A stretch of DNA of 51,209 nt. Origin: Escherichia phage BubbaBully. A program made the position numbers and the translations under genes. Location of the stretch: sequence record OR896831.1; one strand, given 5' to 3'. Position 1 is the stretch's first letter. Every line of letters begins with the position of its first letter. A model generated the notes under the pieces. That model saw nothing but the letters and a program-made list of their open reading frames with translations. It was not told the origin of the DNA and did not search any database. Below are positions 22,782 through 43,866 of the stretch, one piece after another.

Positions 22782-23204
22782 ATGCACATTATTACCGGAG
22801 AAATTCGAAAAGAGCCGCGAATCAAGCAGACTCAAAACGGCACGCTTTACGTAGTTGAGTTGTCAGAGCGCTACAAAGACCGTGAAGGAAACGCTCAGTA
22901 CACAAATTACACGTTTTTCTTTAATGCTCGCGCCGGATCTGAGGGTATGAAAAACTGGTATGATGAGGCGTTCCAGGTCGGCAAGGTGATCTCTGTTTCT
23001 TGCGAAGTGCTAAAGGCAGAATTGCGAGAGTATGAGGGGAAGACGTATGTCACCATGCAAGCGGCAGACTTCCCGAAACTGCTGTTTAGCCAGCGCGGAA
23101 TCGCAGCGCCACAACAGCAAAGCCAACCACGGCAGCAAAGCCAAATCCAGCCACGGCAGAGCCAAGAGCCGCCAATCGACTTTGACGACGATATCCCATT
23201 CTAA
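22782..23204 (+). CDS. ssb: single-stranded DNA-binding protein
   Basis: 140 aa; Q/P-rich linker and acidic C-terminal tail DFDDDIPF typical of SSB. Confidence 0.75.
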   Translation: MHIITGEIRKEPRIKQTQNGTLYVVELSERYKDREGNAQYTNYTFFFNARAGSEGMKNWYDEAFQVGKVISVSCEVLKAELREYEGKTYVTMQAADFPKLLFSQRGIAAPQQQSQPRQQSQIQPRQSQEPPIDFDDDIPF

Positions 23205-28964: not shown

Positions 28965-29008
28965 ATAGCACTTTTTGCTAAAAACATTCAAAACGTAGGC
29001 GCTATTAT
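28965..29008 (+). promoter_or_regulatory. box promoter (box + 22-bp spacer + TATTAT) for helicase gene
   Basis: ATAGCACTTTTTGCTAAAA 28965-28983; -10 TATTAT 29003-29008; 32 nt upstream of the helicase start. Confidence 0.55.
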
Positions 29009-31043: not shown

Positions 31044-31460
31044 ATGGTTACTGACAAAGGCGATTATCTGGAATACTACGAACGGGATCCGAGCGATACG
31101 CGCAAGGAGGATTCGCACCAGGTTGATTGTGTGGCGTGGTTGCGCCACCACTACCCGCACTTGCTTTTCTGGCACACTGTCAACGAGGGGAGCAAGACAA
31201 TAACCGCCGCTCTGCGTGACGAACAGGCCGGATTGCTCAAGGGTGTTTCCGATTTCGTTATCCTGATTGGTTCCGGTAAATATCCGTTTGCAGCCATAGA
31301 GCTAAAGCAAGCCAACAAATCAGGGAAGCGCAAAGCTTCACCAGTCAGCGATAACCAGAAAGCTTTCTTGAGCAAGGTTAGGGCGCTGGGTGGATTTGCC
31401 GCTGTGTGTTATGGCGTGAAGCAATTCAAACTTGCAATTGCAGATCTCTTGCAGGAATAG
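31044..31460 (+). CDS. VRR-NUC domain nuclease
   Basis: Start ATG 31044 just after helicase stop; D...ELK PD-(D/E)XK-type motif. Confidence 0.6.
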   Translation: MVTDKGDYLEYYERDPSDTRKEDSHQVDCVAWLRHHYPHLLFWHTVNEGSKTITAALRDEQAGLLKGVSDFVILIGSGKYPFAAIELKQANKSGKRKASPVSDNQKAFLSKVRALGGFAAVCYGVKQFKLAIADLLQE

Positions 31461-31500
31461 CACTTTTTGTTAAAACCCGCTTAGGCTGGTTTTGTATTAT
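31457..31500 (+). promoter_or_regulatory. box promoter (box + 22 bp + TATTAT)
   Basis: Box starts inside the TAG stop of upstream gene; -10 at 31495-31500; CA-rich leader to ATG 31530. Confidence 0.55.
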
Positions 31501-33420: not shown

Positions 33421-33464
33421 ATAGCACTTTTTGTTAAAAATGCCCGGCGAAAGTCGGGCATAAT
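33421..33464 (+). promoter_or_regulatory. box promoter (box + hairpin + CATAAT)
   Basis: Box begins directly after TAA stop; stem GCCCGGC/GTCGGGC; -10 at 33459-33464. Confidence 0.55.
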
Positions 33465-37087: not shown

Positions 37088-38665
37088 TCACCCCATTAAA
37101 GCAGGATTCACAAATACGCGCCCATTTGTGAGGCATACGTAATTCAGATCTTCAAGGATTGGAAGCAAGTGCCCCTCAATTCGCTTCATTACGCCAGACT
37201 GACCCAAGAACGGACGAACCTTACGCACAGACTCATAAATAGCTCGCGCAGTGATAGCGCCTTTATTGGCCTTTCCGAGTCTGGTTATCGTGTCGATAAT
37301 CTTGATCAACTCTGCATCCTGACCAGCATGACCTGATGCGTTTGCCGCGCTAATGTAGGTCTTGCTCAACTCCTGGAACATCAAGAGAGCCTCCTGCATA
37401 GTCTCAACGTCAATCTCCCGTGACTTTGTGGCGGTTCCGTTAACGTCCTGCCAGTTTCGGATCGTGTGGATAACGGAGGCCAGGCGAATAACCTGCTTAT
37501 CCATTTTACCCAACGCACCACGTAGCATTGTGTGAGAATATTCTCCGCCGTCTGCTAGTTTTGGCTCCATTTCCTGACGAGCCATGTTTAGCACGCGCAT
37601 AGCGGAGCGGCTAACTTTCAATGAAACGGATTGCTCCATCATGATATTGTGGATCAGCTTGTAATAGTCTGCTTTAAGACCTGCATCAACTGGCGTATAA
37701 GTTGTGTCTCCGTTGTCGTCAACGAATTTACGGCGGCCTAAGAATGACTCCTCGCGAACCAGCAAGAAACGCTCCGAAACACCGATACCACGAGCGCCAG
37801 CCTCCATAATGCCGCTGATTGTCTCGTCCTGCGCAATCACAGCCATGCAACCAAGAGCCGTAAAGCTCATGTTGTTTTCTGCATTTGCACGGGAAATGGA
37901 AACGTGACCGCTATCCCAAGCCTTTAGCACCAATTCACTGTTAGTCTTTCGCTCGCTATTTGCGTAAGTCAGCCCGAGCAGTGAGTTTATACTGGTTGCC
38001 TCGTCCGAGATAACAGCAAAGTTACCCTGGCGGAAGTTGATTTTAGCCAAACCCTCTGGAGTTGTGTCTGAAACCGGAAACACAACGTCGCACAGCTTTG
38101 CGAGCTTTTCCTCGTACTCCTCTTTTTCCTCGTAAAGCGCAGCGTACTCAGTACCTGAGCGCTCTGATTTTAACTCCTTTGCAATGCCGTTGAGTTTTGA
38201 CTGAATCTTTTTGCGCTCTTTCTTGCGTTGCTCGTTGATGCGCTCAACCTCTGCAACAATCGGGGCAATCGCCATTGAGTTAATGGCTGATTTACCAGTT
38301 GAAGGAGGCTGGCTTGTCACAACGTACAGCGCCGTTGGCTGATCGGTTCCGTGGTATTCCACGGTAAATCGCCCGAGCATCGCGGCAGACACACAGCCTA
38401 CGAAATGCATGTAGGCAGATGAAACAGGGAATTGAACGGATTCCGCCAAGCTGCGAGACAGCTTTCCTACAACGTCGCAATCGTTGCCGAGGGAAATAAC
38501 AGGATACTTGTCATTTCCGCTGTTAATGTCTTTAACATCACCCCAAAAACCAGACGAGCGAGAGTAGCCGTTTGCCTGGATTGCAACCTTAACGGCGCTC
38601 AAGCCTTGAGCCTCAGCCGTTGAAATGATTTGTTGTGGTGTCAGCGTGGATTGTTCAAAAAACAT
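37088..38665 (-). CDS. P-loop NTPase of unknown function
   Basis: 525 aa; Walker A-like PPSTGKS and Walker B-like AVISDE; own box promoter. Confidence 0.6.
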   Translation of the reverse strand: MFFEQSTLTPQQIISTAEAQGLSAVKVAIQANGYSRSSGFWGDVKDINSGNDKYPVISLGNDCDVVGKLSRSLAESVQFPVSSAYMHFVGCVSAAMLGRFTVEYHGTDQPTALYVVTSQPPSTGKSAINSMAIAPIVAEVERINEQRKKERKKIQSKLNGIAKELKSERSGTEYAALYEEKEEYEEKLAKLCDVVFPVSDTTPEGLAKINFRQGNFAVISDEATSINSLLGLTYANSERKTNSELVLKAWDSGHVSISRANAENNMSFTALGCMAVIAQDETISGIMEAGARGIGVSERFLLVREESFLGRRKFVDDNGDTTYTPVDAGLKADYYKLIHNIMMEQSVSLKVSRSAMRVLNMARQEMEPKLADGGEYSHTMLRGALGKMDKQVIRLASVIHTIRNWQDVNGTATKSREIDVETMQEALLMFQELSKTYISAANASGHAGQDAELIKIIDTITRLGKANKGAITARAIYESVRKVRPFLGQSGVMKRIEGHLLPILEDLNYVCLTNGRVFVNPALMG

Positions 38666-38693: not shown

Positions 38694-38737
38694 ATTATAG
38701 GTCAACCATCTTACAGCCTTTTAGCAATTCGTGCTAT
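38694..38737 (-). promoter_or_regulatory. box promoter (box + 22 bp + TATAAT in hairpin loop)
   Basis: Box 38719-38737 overlaps TAG stop of upstream gene; TATAAT 38694-38699 in loop of GGTTGACC/GGTCAACC. Confidence 0.55.
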
Positions 38738-39553: not shown

Positions 39554-39597
39554 ATAATAGCGGATCTTATCGACCCGCTTTTAACAAAAAGTGCTAT
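39554..39597 (-). promoter_or_regulatory. box promoter (box + hairpin + TATTAT)
   Basis: Box 39579-39597 (- strand), stem AGCGG/CCGCT, -10 at 39554-39559. Confidence 0.55.
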
Positions 39598-39681
39598 TTA
39601 CAGAAAGGGCATGAGCTTTTATCTCCACTCCCTCCGTGGTGAGGGCAGCAAATTTTTTCGATTGGTGTCATGTTGTTCTCC

Positions 39682-40395
39682 TTATTTTGAATTAGCCAGC
39701 CATACAGCAATCGCCAGGCCGCGTGGAGTTAGTGAGCGAATCAGTTTTGTTCTCTCTGATTTGCCGCCTAATTTCTTCCAGCCTGGATTGTCGTTTCCTA
39801 CTGGATCAACTGGTAGCGGTTCAGGCATTACAAATCCGTTTCCCGTCCAAAGACATGTATTCTTATTGTATGCGTCGCTCGCCGGAATAATGTCAGGGAA
39901 GGCTGGGTGCGCCTCGTCTTTCAAATGAATGTAGCCGCCATAGTCGCACGGATGGAATTTGTGATCCGGCTTGCGCCATAGCGTTGACAGCTTGCCTACA
40001 GGGTTTTCGATCATGTACGGAGCGCCAAAATGATCAGCAATCTCCGCCGCAATCTTGCAGGTAGCTGCCGCTTTAACCTGGAAATCTGGATCGATCTCAG
40101 CTTTGCGCTTCCAGTGGCGCGAGCCTGAGTTTGCCAGGTCTGTACATGGAGGAAACGCCATAACAAAATCAGGCTTACCCCAAAGCAGGTTACATGCGCT
40201 CACCTTGAAATCGTCGTCAATCCATGCGTTAACATAGCGAATGTTGGGATGCGTTACGCGCACTGATTGGTACGAGCCGTGATCACCTTCATCGGCATTG
40301 AAACAGATAACCTTGTAACCAGCTTTAGCCCACGGCAGCGCCGCGTAGCCGGAACCGTCGAACATTGAGAAAACAAGACCTTTGATGTTGTTCAT
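39682..40395 (-). CDS. compact C5-cytosine methyltransferase-like protein
   Basis: 237 aa; motif I-like FDGSGYAALPWAKAG, PC motif FPPCTDLANSG, ENV-like motif ENPVG; no obvious target-recognition domain. Confidence 0.5.
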   Translation of the reverse strand: MNNIKGLVFSMFDGSGYAALPWAKAGYKVICFNADEGDHGSYQSVRVTHPNIRYVNAWIDDDFKVSACNLLWGKPDFVMAFPPCTDLANSGSRHWKRKAEIDPDFQVKAAATCKIAAEIADHFGAPYMIENPVGKLSTLWRKPDHKFHPCDYGGYIHLKDEAHPAFPDIIPASDAYNKNTCLWTGNGFVMPEPLPVDPVGNDNPGWKKLGGKSERTKLIRSLTPRGLAIAVWLANSK

Positions 40396-40405
40396 TTCTT
40401 AATCC

Positions 40406-40630
40406 TCAGAATGGGAAGCAACGATTGCAAGCTGGATCAAATTCACAGCCGCAGTCATTCACAATCATTGTTGGATCAGCAAACGCCGCGCCGCTCTCCA
40501 TATCCATATCCATATCGCCAAGCGCCTCGTCAAGCGTGCGCAGTTTATAAGCAACCTCAAGCGCTGCCTCTTTGTTCAGTCCAGCAGCTTCCGCCTCTTG
40601 CAGACGGGCAAAGAAACCATCTTGTGACAC
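40406..40630 (-). CDS. small acidic protein with C-terminal Cys cluster
   Basis: 74 aa ending NDCGCEFDPACNRCFPF. Confidence 0.45.
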   Translation of the reverse strand: MSQDGFFARLQEAEAAGLNKEAALEVAYKLRTLDEALGDMDMDMESGAAFADPTMIVNDCGCEFDPACNRCFPF

Positions 40631-40684
40631 AATTCACTCCTTTAAAACTGGCGGCGCAATTGCCGCCTTTAAACCAATCAGGGG

Positions 40685-40915
40685 TTACCAAGCTTTCCAC
40701 GTTTCGATATACATCGAATTTTCATCCAGGAAATCGATCACATCCTGCTTGCTATACTGGCGCAGCGTGCAGCGCGGCGACGTTCCAACGGTATAGCAGC
40801 CTTTACCCTCGGTGATGGTCACTTGCTTGATTTTCTCACCTGGGATGTCGCACTTGATGATCACGCGGTGGTGGCTATCCAGGGTTTTCATGATGTTTTC
40901 GGTTTTGAGTTTCAT
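40685..40915 (-). CDS. hypothetical protein
   Basis: 76-aa ORF downstream of a box promoter. Confidence 0.5.
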   Translation of the reverse strand: MKLKTENIMKTLDSHHRVIIKCDIPGEKIKQVTITEGKGCYTVGTSPRCTLRQYSKQDVIDFLDENSMYIETWKAW

Positions 40916-40946
40916 ACGTTTGTCCTCGTTTGTTGTCGATGGCGCT

Positions 40947-40990
40947 ACTATACCAGGCCGCAGCGCCGGAGTTTTAACAAAAAGTGCTAT
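40947..40990 (-). promoter_or_regulatory. box promoter (box + 22 bp + TG-n-TATAGT in hairpin loop)
   Basis: Box 40972-40990; TATAGT at 40947-40952 within GGCGCT/AGCGCC hairpin. Confidence 0.55.
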
Positions 40991-41068
40991 CAGTTCCAGA
41001 ATGAGTGGCGGGGCGCACGTTTACCATCACCGCCGTAGTGGTCATTGGAAACAGCAATCATCCAGGCG

Positions 41069-41350
41069 TTAGCGAATATCAGCAGTCGCATAAATCACCC
41101 CTTTAATCTTCTTGATCTCGTCAACTAACTCTTGCTCGTTGTGAATCATGGCGGGTGAGCACTCCCAACAAGCTGATGGCAGTTTCTTGTTCTTGCCCTT
41201 AATCAGAAATCCGCCCATCAACTCCCAATTACAGATAAGGCGATCATCACGCACATCGTACAGGTTAAACAGATTGCGACGCTCGCCGCCAACGTAAATC
41301 TTCATTCCATTATTGCGGCAGAATCCGCGTAATTCTTTCGTAACTCGCAT
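41069..41350 (-). CDS. hypothetical Cys-containing protein
   Basis: 93-aa ORF with CxxC-like pairs. Confidence 0.5.
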   Translation of the reverse strand: MRVTKELRGFCRNNGMKIYVGGERRNLFNLYDVRDDRLICNWELMGGFLIKGKNKKLPSACWECSPAMIHNEQELVDEIKKIKGVIYATADIR

Positions 41351-41544
41351 TATTCACTCTCCAGTACAGTAACAGGATCCAGGCGCTCCAGCACAACTTT
41401 GAAGTCGGCAAAGAATGTCGGCCTACGTTCGGTTAACTCCGTATAGGTGTCAGTCGCCAGCGTTGCGCGATCACCTTCATAGCACACCACACGCTTTCCG
41501 TTCTCGCGGCTGATTGCCACCACGCGATATGTGTTTTTGGTCAT
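41350..41544 (-). CDS. hypothetical protein
   Basis: 64-aa ORF, TAATG coupling to the downstream gene. Confidence 0.45.
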   Translation of the reverse strand: MTKNTYRVVAISRENGKRVVCYEGDRATLATDTYTELTERRPTFFADFKVVLERLDPVTVLESE

Positions 41545-41562
41545 GCGTTACCTCCTGGTTGG

Positions 41563-41841
41563 TTAAAAGCATTGAGGGCAAGAGCTTGCGATAAACTTGA
41601 TCACATTGCGCAGTTGGCGCTCGTCAAAGATTGTCGCTGGCAATTCCTCTTTCACTTCCTGGCGCAGATAAACGTTGCCGTGCCATGTGAGCTTGTCGTG
41701 TTCAATGCGATAGCTGCACATCCATTCACAATCGTTGTCAGCCTCCCAAATGCAAAGAGCGGTGTAGTCGCCCAAGTCCTCAACGGTCAATTCAATGCCG
41801 CGTTTCTTTGCCATGTTGAAAGTGGTCTTGCTGATGTTCAT
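41563..41841 (-). CDS. hypothetical Cys-rich protein
   Basis: Start set at ATG 41841 (GAGGAA RBS); first gene of the leftward accessory block. Confidence 0.5.
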   Translation of the reverse strand: MNISKTTFNMAKKRGIELTVEDLGDYTALCIWEADNDCEWMCSYRIEHDKLTWHGNVYLRQEVKEELPATIFDERQLRNVIKFIASSCPQCF

Positions 41842-41872: not shown

Positions 41873-41916
41873 ATTATGCCGAAATCAGATCAGTCTGTTT
41901 TAGCAAAAAGTGCTAT
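41873..41916 (-). promoter_or_regulatory. box promoter (box + 22 bp + CATAAT) driving the leftward accessory block
   Basis: Box 41898-41916; -10 at 41873-41878; CA-rich leader. Confidence 0.55.
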
Positions 41917-41994
41917 TTAATCGGTAGTCAGTGATTTTGATGATTGCTTGACCAGTTTTGTAAGGTTGTTTTTGATGCCCGTCAACTTTTGTGT

Positions 41995-42035
41995 GATTGT
42001 GATGATTGTTGATTAGATTTGATTGGATTTGATTG
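41995..42035. repeat. iteron-like array of GATTG direct repeats
   Basis: GATTG at 41995, 42004, 42021, 42031 and GATTA at 42011, spaced 7-10 bp, in the AT-rich divergent region. Confidence 0.5.
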
Positions 42036-42503
42036 TGGGAATCAGCATGGCCTGACGATGCCGTTTTTGCGCTCTCTAAAACTCCACTCTGTTATCTTCT
42101 GTTTACAATCGTTTCCTCTTGTTACCAAAAGTACGGTGGCGTAGTTTGTTCGCGTTTTTCGCGTGGCAGAAACAAAAAAAAACTTTTAATCTCCCTATAA
42201 ACAACTAATAAAATCAATAGTTTATTTTATATATATTATATTTGTTTTCACTACGTTATACTTGTTCCATATGGTATAGGGTGGTTATGGGATTTTATTA
42301 TTGGTGGTATTGGTTAATTTATAGGCATGTTCCGCTCAGGATGTTTACGATTCATCATTTCGTTGTGGTTGCTTTGGGTGACATATACATATTCATTATG
42401 GCCTCCGAAAAAACTGTAACGGCTGTAACATGCAAAAAACAGAATTTATCATCATGTAAATCAACAACTTACGACAAATTTTGTTTTTCGGCTCAAAAAA
42501 AAC

Positions 42504-42532
42504 TTGTGGAAACCGATTGTAACATGCATAAT
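42504..42532 (+). promoter_or_regulatory. sigma70-like promoter (TTGTGG-17-CATAAT) for first rightward early genes
   Basis: Hexamers with 17-bp spacer and upstream A-tract; no box; CA-rich leader before ATG 42565. Confidence 0.45.
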
Positions 42533-42564
42533 GCACACCGAAATGAACAAACGGAGGTAAAACG

Positions 42565-43260: not shown

Positions 43261-43304
43261 ATAGCACTTTTTGTTAAAAACGCCCCGCGCGAGTGGGGCA
43301 TAAT
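43261..43304 (+). promoter_or_regulatory. box promoter (box + hairpin + CATAAT)
   Basis: Box 43261-43279; stem GCCCC/GGGGC; -10 at 43299-43304. Confidence 0.55.
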
Positions 43305-43334: not shown

Positions 43335-43529
43335 ATGGCTATCAGATTCAACGCTGACTACCCAGGCTTTAAATCTGGCAAGACCTATCAGGCAAAATAT
43401 GCAGCGCACCCATTCTACGGCTACCTTGCAATCAAGGTTGTAGACGATGACGGCGACACGCGATACCTGGCGCTTAATCTGCTTGAGGACGGCTCAATCG
43501 TGGAGGTTGATGAAGATGAAGATCACTAA
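43335..43529 (+). CDS. small acidic protein
   Basis: Start at ATG 43335 after GGAGA RBS; 64 aa ending VEVDEDEDH. Confidence 0.45.
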   Translation: MAIRFNADYPGFKSGKTYQAKYAAHPFYGYLAIKVVDDDGDTRYLALNLLEDGSIVEVDEDEDH

Positions 43530-43866
43530 TCAAGCGCGAAACTATGCATTGAAGCACGGAGTGCATGTCTACGGACTGACAAACGAGCAAAGCCGCGCCC
43601 TGGTTTTCTACGATATCGCCAGCGGCACAAAGCTATGCACTTACAAGAGCTACAGCGATGATAACCCATTGCAGAAGTCGCTCAACTACAAGATGAAGCC
43701 GGAAACCTGGCAAGCGATGCCGGATGATATCCGCACGGCTCAGGGTGTGCAGAAAGCAATTGAGGCGATGGTTGCAACTGGCACGGCTCGACTGCTGGAC
43801 GAGGACGAGCTAGCGGAAGCACGCAACAAGATCCTCAAGCGGTCAACGGGAGTTGAGATCCTATGA
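43516..43866 (+). CDS. hypothetical protein
   Basis: Start at ATG 43516, 8 nt after GGAGG; 116 aa. Confidence 0.5.
   Translation: MKITNQARNYALKHGVHVYGLTNEQSRALVFYDIASGTKLCTYKSYSDDNPLQKSLNYKMKPETWQAMPDDIRTAQGVQKAIEAMVATGTARLLDEDELAEARNKILKRSTGVEIL

Follow-up and report, generated by a model that had tools for sequence, protein, structure and literature searches.

Four small, cysteine-rich open reading frames (ORFs) lie in the leftward gene block of Escherichia phage BubbaBully (sequence record OR896831.1; the window analysed here is the whole stretch of 51,209 nucleotides), and an earlier note on this DNA had read all of them as zinc-ribbon-like metalloproteins serving host takeover or anti-defence. 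According to our comparison of orthologues, this cluster very likely consists of three unrelated kinds of small gene (A, B and the related C and D) and is not a zinc-ribbon set. Protein A is split from B, C and D because the conservation of the cysteines differs in the orthologue alignments and, since conservation is lacking for those of B, C and D, the zinc-ribbon reading survives for A only. As for the role of A, the reading that we favour, with a probability of roughly 0.4, is that it would mimic the C-terminal tip of SSB (single-stranded DNA-binding protein), being stiffened by a zinc knuckle and docking into the pockets that receive this tip (SSB-Ct). The four genes and the one found among them are as follows:

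Protein A: positions 40406 to 40630, minus strand; 74 amino acids (aa), GTG start at 40630, ribosome-binding site (RBS) AAGGAG, phrog_9323.
Protein B: positions 40685 to 40915, minus strand; 76 aa, phrog_4344, directly preceding A, Shine-Dalgarno sequence present.
Protein C: positions 41069 to 41350, minus strand; 93 aa, assigned to the C/D/E paralogue family, Shine-Dalgarno sequence present.
Protein X: positions 41350 to 41544, minus strand; 64 aa, phrog_6503, located between C and D, with a single cysteine and no cysteine cluster.
Protein D: positions 41563 to 41841, minus strand; 92 aa, phrog_6147, ATG start at 41841, RBS GAGGAA, assigned as a paralogue of C and E.

The four ORFs are indeed present on the minus strand where the earlier note had placed them, and their cysteine patterns match its description. 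A Shine-Dalgarno sequence was found for each, the PHROG matches are consistent with the ORF boundaries, and orthologues of each exist in many phages; A to D are real genes. (A longer form of D, starting at the ATG at 41874, was rejected, as it has no RBS and as the PHROG alignment begins at Met12 of the longer ORF.) With 4, 3, 4 and 5 cysteines, they total 16 cysteines over 335 residues (4.8%), vs. a background of 1.2% in the same phage (132 of 10,753 residues from 32 long ORFs), which amounts to a binomial P of 5.6e-6, or of 1.9e-4 when a conservative background of 1.66% is used. The cysteine enrichment is real within this genome. However, the four genes are not all adjacent, as had been claimed: gene X, with its single cysteine, separates C from D.

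Orthologues were aligned from 20 related IMG/VR loci anchored on the methyltransferase gene of the block, complemented by GenBank relatives; the block is not present in the left 7 kb of the phage T1 record, and Bas13 (Tunavirus) was taken instead. None of the three cysteines of B is conserved, the corresponding residues in orthologues being L/M, G/A/N/R and G/D/S/A. In C, the CWEC motif reads TWAL in relatives that are ~70–82% identical, and C40 is the sole invariant cysteine among C orthologues. The terminal CPQC of D reads NLHMMK in Bas11 and is missing from most of the family, in which the endings ENI and EIKK are also seen. Moreover, structure prediction, which had been proposed as a check of metal binding, yielded for D a confident model (predicted local distance difference test, pLDDT, of 89.7; predicted template modelling score, pTM, of 0.81) in which no metal site is apparent: the chain forms a helix, four strands and two helices, i.e., an alpha/beta sandwich over which the cysteines are scattered, with the CPQC in a tail of pLDDT ~51. 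Through the family alignment, the CxxC of C falls on the short helix 61–66 of this model. Judged from these alignments, a conserved zinc-ribbon property is refuted for B, C and D, which do not qualify as zinc knuckles or ribbons either. More generally, single-genome cysteine counts do not reveal zinc proteins, three of the four candidates losing their cysteines in close relatives.

The A family is small and restricted to phages: 111 clusters were retrieved by a word-indexed search, 34 representatives at 50% identity by an exhaustive HMMER scan of 1.84 billion proteins, and 448 GenBank phage records, mostly ~50 kb T1-like genomes, by a single-sequence tblastn. In protein A, a helical module at the N-terminus (AGLNKEAALEVAYK...LDEALGDMDMDMES) is followed by an acidic linker, then by a Cys4 knuckle and finally by the C-terminal FPF, the last two occupying the following stretch:

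Knuckle and tip of A: positions 40409 to 40453, minus strand; residues 60–74, CGCEFDPACNRCFPF, a CxC-x5-CxxC fused to [F/I]PF.

The CxC-x5-CxxC is invariant in all 17 distinct orthologues from the loci (17/17) and in 112 database members. Across 17 nucleotide versions of the gene, Cys codons 2–4 swap TGT and TGC with the residue remaining constant, and the codons of the terminal Pro and Phe likewise vary synonymously; the knuckle is under clear purifying selection. The Webervirus proteins, at ~42% identity, keep the pattern of knuckle and tip (CGCTGEEGCRECIPFW). With four invariant cysteines within 12 residues, A resembles zinc knuckles and ribbons, and its Cys4 motif probably binds zinc, although A differs from them in being a single compact knuckle instead of a two-knuckle beta-ribbon and in having no Pfam zinc-finger match. 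About half of the representatives have a Cys4 knuckle directly before the tip (CxxC-IPF, CxxC-KDE-IPF), and in three members (P0107, P0108 and P0110) it is re-invented with the order reversed, CxxC-x3/5-CxC. The description of A as zinc-ribbon-like is borne out insofar as its Cys4 knuckle is selectively maintained, but not at the family level, where the knuckle is dispensable, the Tunavirus orthologue having zero cysteines. Across the alignments, the hallmark of the family is instead the combination of module, variable acidic linker and tip. The C-terminus resembling the SSB tip is a stronger signature than the knuckle, and the earlier note had missed it.

A tip of the form [ILVMFYE][PS][FW](W) terminates 24 of the 34 representatives and 126 of the 136 small members of the family, the penultimate residue being Pro, rarely Ser, and the last one Phe or Trp. 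Knuckle-free members end with EDDDDYIPW (Bas13_0048, in Tunavirus), LKFDDGIPF, GDYDDFIPW, TFDFDQLPF or DFDNNHLPF, and acidic residues before the tip are seen in these as well as in some members with a knuckle (e.g., DDDDYIPW, FDDGIPF, KDEIPF, LDEIPF, CDDCIPF). Such endings resemble the SSB-Ct of E. coli (MDFDDDIPF) in two ways: the A family ends with [I/F/L/V]-P-[F/W]-COOH, preceded by D/E-rich or DFD-like residues in knuckle-free members, and between the tip and the folded N-terminal part there is a variable linker, rich in acidic residues and apparently disordered. In SSB itself, a disordered linker connects the DNA-binding domain to the tip, the nine residues of which alone bind RecO, PriA, chi and PriC (PMC7145534), while DDDIPF is the conserved SSB hexapeptide (PMC5872125). 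Among the 553 six-frame ORFs of the window, a P[FW] C-terminus is found only in A and in the SSB of the phage (DFDDDIPF):

Phage SSB: positions 22782 to 23204, plus strand; ends with ...PPIDFDDDIPF, so named because of its tail, its location and a synteny of the Bas11 type; adjoins the ERF recombinase.

For this phage SSB, Pfam yields no family at E <= 0.001. As to A, the lack of an OB fold (there is no family match and the N-terminal part is predicted as three short helices) means that it is no SSB; it also differs from SSB by the lack of a DNA-binding domain and of a Pfam SSB match, and by its length of just 74 aa. The tips differ too, since A of the window has a Cys4 knuckle in place of the aspartates and an FPF ending, and since some members add a W or lack the tip. 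Among phage proteins, gp2.5 and gp4 of T7 have acidic C-terminal tails with a terminal aromatic residue, which dock onto partner proteins. In T7, the tails are parts of large functional proteins (an SSB and a helicase-primase, respectively), whereas A is a small module with a tail and has no sequence relationship to them.

Regarding the rest of A, all family members have in common the module AGLN-E...VA...TL--ALG-MDMD-ES, which stops near residue 45 and is followed by 22–54 variable, acid-rich residues (tip included); every member is net acidic, and the 74 aa of A itself carry a net charge of about −10. The AF2 model of A has helices at residues 4–15, 20–27 and 33–37, the remainder being unstructured (pLDDT 59.6), which fits a small module with a flexible tail. 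A has no match in Pfam (SSB and zinc-finger families included), NCBIfam or the PDB.

In some remote homologues of A, P0247 (217 aa) and P0256 (309 aa), the N-module is internal and is followed by a zinc-ribbon-like C-terminal domain (CPAC...CPAC) that replaces linker and tip, while P0249, P0255 and P0261 have the N-module joined to different domains; this variety of fusions indicates that the N-module is a portable unit. Within the module, a short repeat codes for DMDMDM, which is near-invariant in A:

(GATATG)3 hexanucleotide repeat: positions 40499 to 40516, minus strand; codes for DMDMDM.

Two database singletons, P0109 and P0111, are frameshifted exactly at this repeat (reading YGYG... and IWIWIW...), and two truncated sequences, P0105 and P0106, stop there. 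The frameshifts are either sequencing errors or slippage-prone sites.

If A is a mimic of the SSB-Ct, its helical N-module, its acidic, probably disordered linker and its [F/I]-P-[F/W]-COOH tip would copy the linker-plus-tip design of SSB. The tip would enter the pockets normally taken by the C-terminal tip of SSB, and the Cys4 knuckle, which sits where the knuckle-free members have their run of aspartates, would, with its putative zinc, hold the tip in a set shape. Candidate partners on the host side would be chi of DNA polymerase III, PriA, RecO, RecQ, ExoI and others, while those on the phage side would be Erf, the primase and the helicases. A could either outcompete SSB for these partners or bridge them to the ligand of the N-module. 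The phage carries a primase, helicases, Erf, an exonuclease and its SSB, but no polymerase domain was found in the ten phage proteins scanned, which makes chi of the host polymerase an attractive target. Likewise, Erf is a candidate because phage single-strand annealing proteins probably require the SSB tail (PMC12054835). More tentative is the further proposal that Drexlerviridae devote a microprotein (A, paired with B) to this knuckle-stiffened copy of the SSB-Ct, as its sole active part. Such a peptide-mimicking inhibitor or adaptor would rewire the SSB interactome of the host (chi/Pol III, PriA, RecO, RecQ, ExoI), either to serve the replication of the phage or to draw it off from repair and defence of the host.

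Several observations weigh against mimicry of the SSB-Ct. In A of the window, the FPF tip follows N-R-C and no aspartates, so that here A lacks the acidic stretch of the SSB tip. In Webervirus, the members have an additional W following PF, and recognition of the SSB tip relies on the carboxylate of the terminal Phe. The three members with the reversed knuckle have a Cys4 tail without any PF tip. Furthermore, the phage SSB already provides canonical tips, and a general competitor would disturb the replication of the phage too. The AF2 model of A is too weak, at pLDDT 59.6, to judge either zinc geometry or disorder, and a C-terminal motif of three residues could fit a pocket unrelated to SSB partners.

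An alternative that we deem unlikely, if still serious, is that the [F/I]PF of A would be a generic hydrophobic anchor for a partner internal to the phage, such as B, the DUF3987 helicase or the OB fold of SSB, A being a structural or regulatory subunit of the replisome. The resemblance to the SSB tip would then be coincidental or would reflect self-regulation of the phage SSB. The tip of the window protein, devoid of aspartates, is in line with this, as are the low-confidence monomer model of A, typical of proteins folding on a partner, the conservation of the B–A pair and of the helicase operon (see below) and the binding of the SSB tip onto SSB's DNA-binding domain (PMC7145534). However, the knuckle-free members copy more than PF (DFD, DDD, D-D-x-IPF), which is hard to explain without selection for a recognition akin to that of the SSB tip. 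Moreover, it is the N-module, and not the tip, that is fused to other domains in the larger homologues.

The genomic context of B and A speaks for both the mimicry and this alternative. The region shows ~90% DNA identity to Escherichia phages JohannLBurckhardt (Bas11, a BASEL phage), IsaakIselin and Henu7, and we assign the window to a T1-like phage (Drexlerviridae, Tempevirinae, Henuseptimavirus). Its leftward block is the early and replication operon of such a phage; it begins at a ~690-nt AT-rich divergent intergenic region (41875–42564) and stops at the lysis cassette, its genes being, in order, D, X, C, B and A, the gene for a short Dcm-like methyltransferase, a number of small genes and the DUF3987 helicase. 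A B-type gene (73–76 aa) is located upstream of A in Tempevirinae, Tunavirinae, Webervirus and two metagenomic T1-like contigs; the pair is seen in Bas13 and F20, as well as in loci L031 and L032. A DUF3987 helicase lies downstream of B–A wherever the fetched stretch extends that far:

DUF3987 helicase: positions 37088 to 38665, minus strand; Pfam match at 1.1e-40, the distal conserved gene of the leftward operon.

Single-sequence tblastn searches found B in 556 phage records and the helicase in 906. B and A are a conserved pair in the replication operon, i.e., core genes and not variable cargo, and this speaks against either of them being a typical, variable anti-defence gene. The notion of an accessory block, used in the earlier note, consequently fails for B and A, conserved across Drexlerviridae subfamilies, but suits C, D and a third paralogue, E (see below), all of which show a mobile, accessory-like behaviour. 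The general idea of small early-region proteins acting via protein binding stays plausible. B is the conserved upstream partner of A, with incidental cysteines. A match of B to Pfam DUF5484 was rejected, as it reaches 15.7 bits (E = 0.012) vs. a gathering threshold of 27 and concerns one of nine orthologues. In Klebsiella phage Domnhall, a Webervirus, gp49 is inserted between the B and A orthologues; this protein of 113 aa (L025:3149-3490) has a cysteine cluster of its own (...CCEAPGCGAVYKV...CSKSC...).

It is improbable that A is an acidic DNA mimic or anti-restriction protein acting as the partner of the adjacent methyltransferase:

Dcm-like C5 methyltransferase: positions 39682 to 40395, minus strand; 237 aa, phrog_757 at 2e-83, 10 nt downstream of A.

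Such a role would agree with the strong negative charge of A (about −10), with its location 10 nt upstream of the methyltransferase, both here and in 18 of the 21 methyltransferase-anchored loci, and with the name “putative cytosine DNA methylase” that some records give to A. However, the methyltransferase is absent beside the A variant of locus L022 and lies ~1.8 kb upstream in Bas13, while in TLS a micro-gene (described below) sits between A and the methyltransferase. Furthermore, A has no Pfam or PADLOC match to Ocr, ArdA or other anti-restriction families, and no structured acidic surface is seen in its model. We rejected an obligate partnership of A with the methyltransferase, the latter being absent or elsewhere in L022, Bas13 and L031. 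The methyltransferase itself has a weak Pfam DNA_methylase match (E = 0.34), limited to the N-terminal 90 residues; its position differs among T1-like genera, and it behaves as a mobile insertion.

We regard as quite improbable that all four proteins are zinc-ribbon-like factors of host takeover or anti-defence, in spite of the genuine cysteine enrichment, of the CxxC present in A, C and D, of the lack of any family with an assigned function, and of D-type genes moving among unrelated phages as accessory genes do. Indeed, the cysteines of B, C and D vary even in close orthologues, the confident model of D has no cysteine cluster, its CPQC belonging to the poorly modelled tail, no PADLOC match was obtained, and A and B belong to the core and not to the variable genes. 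The statement that no function could be assigned holds after sequence searches of PHROGs, Pfam, NCBIfam, PADLOC and the PDB. Scans of all block proteins against Pfam, NCBIfam and PADLOC gave no match above threshold, and those against PHROGs matched nothing but families without a known function; none of A, B, C, X and D had a match at E <= 1 in PADLOC-DB, which covers defence and anti-defence, and profile searches of the A, B and C/D/E families against solved structures returned nothing significant. Membership in the PHROG families is clear (E = 1e-22 to 1e-40), the window proteins belonging to phrog_9323 and phrog_9085 (A), phrog_4344 (B) and phrog_6147 (D), and the counterparts in the T1/TLS group are gp75 (A) and gp76 (B) of TLS. 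These families have no functional annotation, and neither the pattern of cysteine conservation, nor the C/D/E paralogy, nor the SSB-like tip is recorded there. Finally, the least credible explanation takes the Cys-rich tail of A for a redox motif, for a disulfide motif or for the core of a modified peptide of ribosomal origin, the helical N-terminal part being its leader: A does have a leader-like helical N-terminus and a short Cys-rich C-terminal segment, but the block and related loci contain no radical SAM enzyme, lanthionine synthetase or cyclodehydratase, Cys-free orthologues of A exist, and A is cytoplasmic, hence in a reducing environment.

If mimicry of the SSB-Ct by A is true, A would be the first natural non-SSB mimic of this hub motif, and phages would have a microprotein dedicated to targeting the interaction hub of SSB. 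In the open-access text searched, we found nothing on these genes, on small zinc proteins of Drexlerviridae or on natural non-SSB mimics of the SSB tip, though an earlier description is possible. The SSB hub is pursued as an antibacterial target with synthetic SSB-Ct mimetics (PMC10143822, PMC5872125). A might then be a natural, zinc-constrained scaffold for SSB-hub inhibitors, and it would offer a way into the question of how the replication and repair proteins of the host are recruited or disarmed by T1-like phages.

The third kind of small gene is represented by C and D, and by a further copy on the other arm of the divergent region:

Protein E: positions 43516 to 43866, plus strand; 116 aa, assigned as the third paralogue, in the rightward arm of the divergent region, RBS GGAGG.

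With phmmer, D cross-matches C-type ORFs, while the alignment of C orthologues vs. D orthologues with hhalign gives a probability of 88% (E = 3e-6) over the full length. A joint hidden Markov model of C and D matches E at E = 1.4e-9 among the 553 ORFs of the window. The three subfamilies align end to end and have in common M1, G15, a hydrophobic-YD strand, LC-x-Y and LP-x-x-I followed by a helix, but no cysteine pair. These alignments identify C, D and E as diverged paralogues. E is extended at its C-terminus by an acidic helix, and its conservation among henuseptimaviruses is high, with orthologues in five of the loci (L001, L004, L006, L010 and L011).

The number of C/D/E copies differs among phages, and the family profile retrieves 257 proteins from the large database. 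D-type genes occur in 422 GenBank phage records, including T1-like siphoviruses, RB49-like T4 relatives, phi92-like myoviruses and one Vibrio phage, and a structural homologue of D is found in Klebsiella jumbo phage RaK2 (BFVD); C-type genes occur in 18 phage records only. Candidate close systems are the RWD/UBC-like alpha+beta domains (Mcm21, Knl1, Spc25, Csm1), with which we group PsiB, T7 Gp1.2 and AcrIIA11, small phage or plasmid inhibitors of similar topology. We infer that C, D and E, diverged versions of a small alpha/beta fold for protein interaction, are modules that bind proteins, evolve fast and are mobile, and that their cysteines are incidental. The family travels between unrelated virulent enterobacterial phages, and its members are the real accessory candidates for binding host factors. 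As a three-copy paralogue family exchanged among T1-like, RB49-like, phi92-like and jumbo phages, it is a candidate for functional screens.

Downstream of A, the block contains one more Cys-rich gene, which was missing from the list of the earlier note:

Micro-gene: positions 39594 to 39671, minus strand; 25 aa, MTPIEKICCPHHGGSGDKSSCPFCK, between the methyltransferase and the next gene, with AAGGAG 7 nt upstream.

It is found, mostly unannotated, in 137 phage records at 68–96% amino-acid identity, its carriers belonging to unrelated lineages: T1-like phages (TLS included), Skate-like and seszw-like Salmonella phages and T4 relatives of the RB43/Lw1/CfP1 type. Nucleotide identity reaches 0.71–0.81 over the ORF vs. 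0.15–0.38 over the flanks, and synonymous differences outnumber non-synonymous ones in each codon comparison (13:4, 10:3 and 10:3). Residues C7, C8, H11, C21 and C24 are invariant, and the resulting CC-x2-H...CxxC is similar to zinc knuckles and ribbons. The micro-gene looks like a real, mobile gene for a zinc-knuckle microprotein; as a gene of 25 aa under purifying selection, it is another candidate for functional screens.

Intergenic regions of the window are punctuated by a 19-mer, of which one copy lies upstream of D:

Intergenic 19-mer copy: positions 41898 to 41916, minus strand; variant ATAGCACTTTTTGYTAAAA, upstream of D.

The 19-mer exists in two variants (ATAGCACTTTTTGYTAAAA and ATAGCACGAATTGCTAAAA), with 18 copies in the window vs. 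0.04 expected. Other copies on the minus strand are at 40972–40990 (upstream of B), 39579–39597 (upstream of the gene after the micro-gene) and 38719–38737, and copies on the plus strand are at 28965–28983, 31457–31475, 33421–33439 and 43261–43279. They mostly follow the local direction of transcription and are situated just upstream of gene groups, splitting the leftward block into D-X-C, B-A-methyltransferase-micro-gene and the following genes. The 19-mer is probably a phage promoter, a regulator-binding site or a terminator-associated element.

Lastly, about 20 records of ~50 kb genomes labelled as Campylobacter jejuni phages (among which MG065669, MG065675 and MG065679; A123, A118 and A13a) hold a T1-like block of the coliphage type, with A, B, D and the helicase, and the Campylobacter host labels of these records look doubtful.

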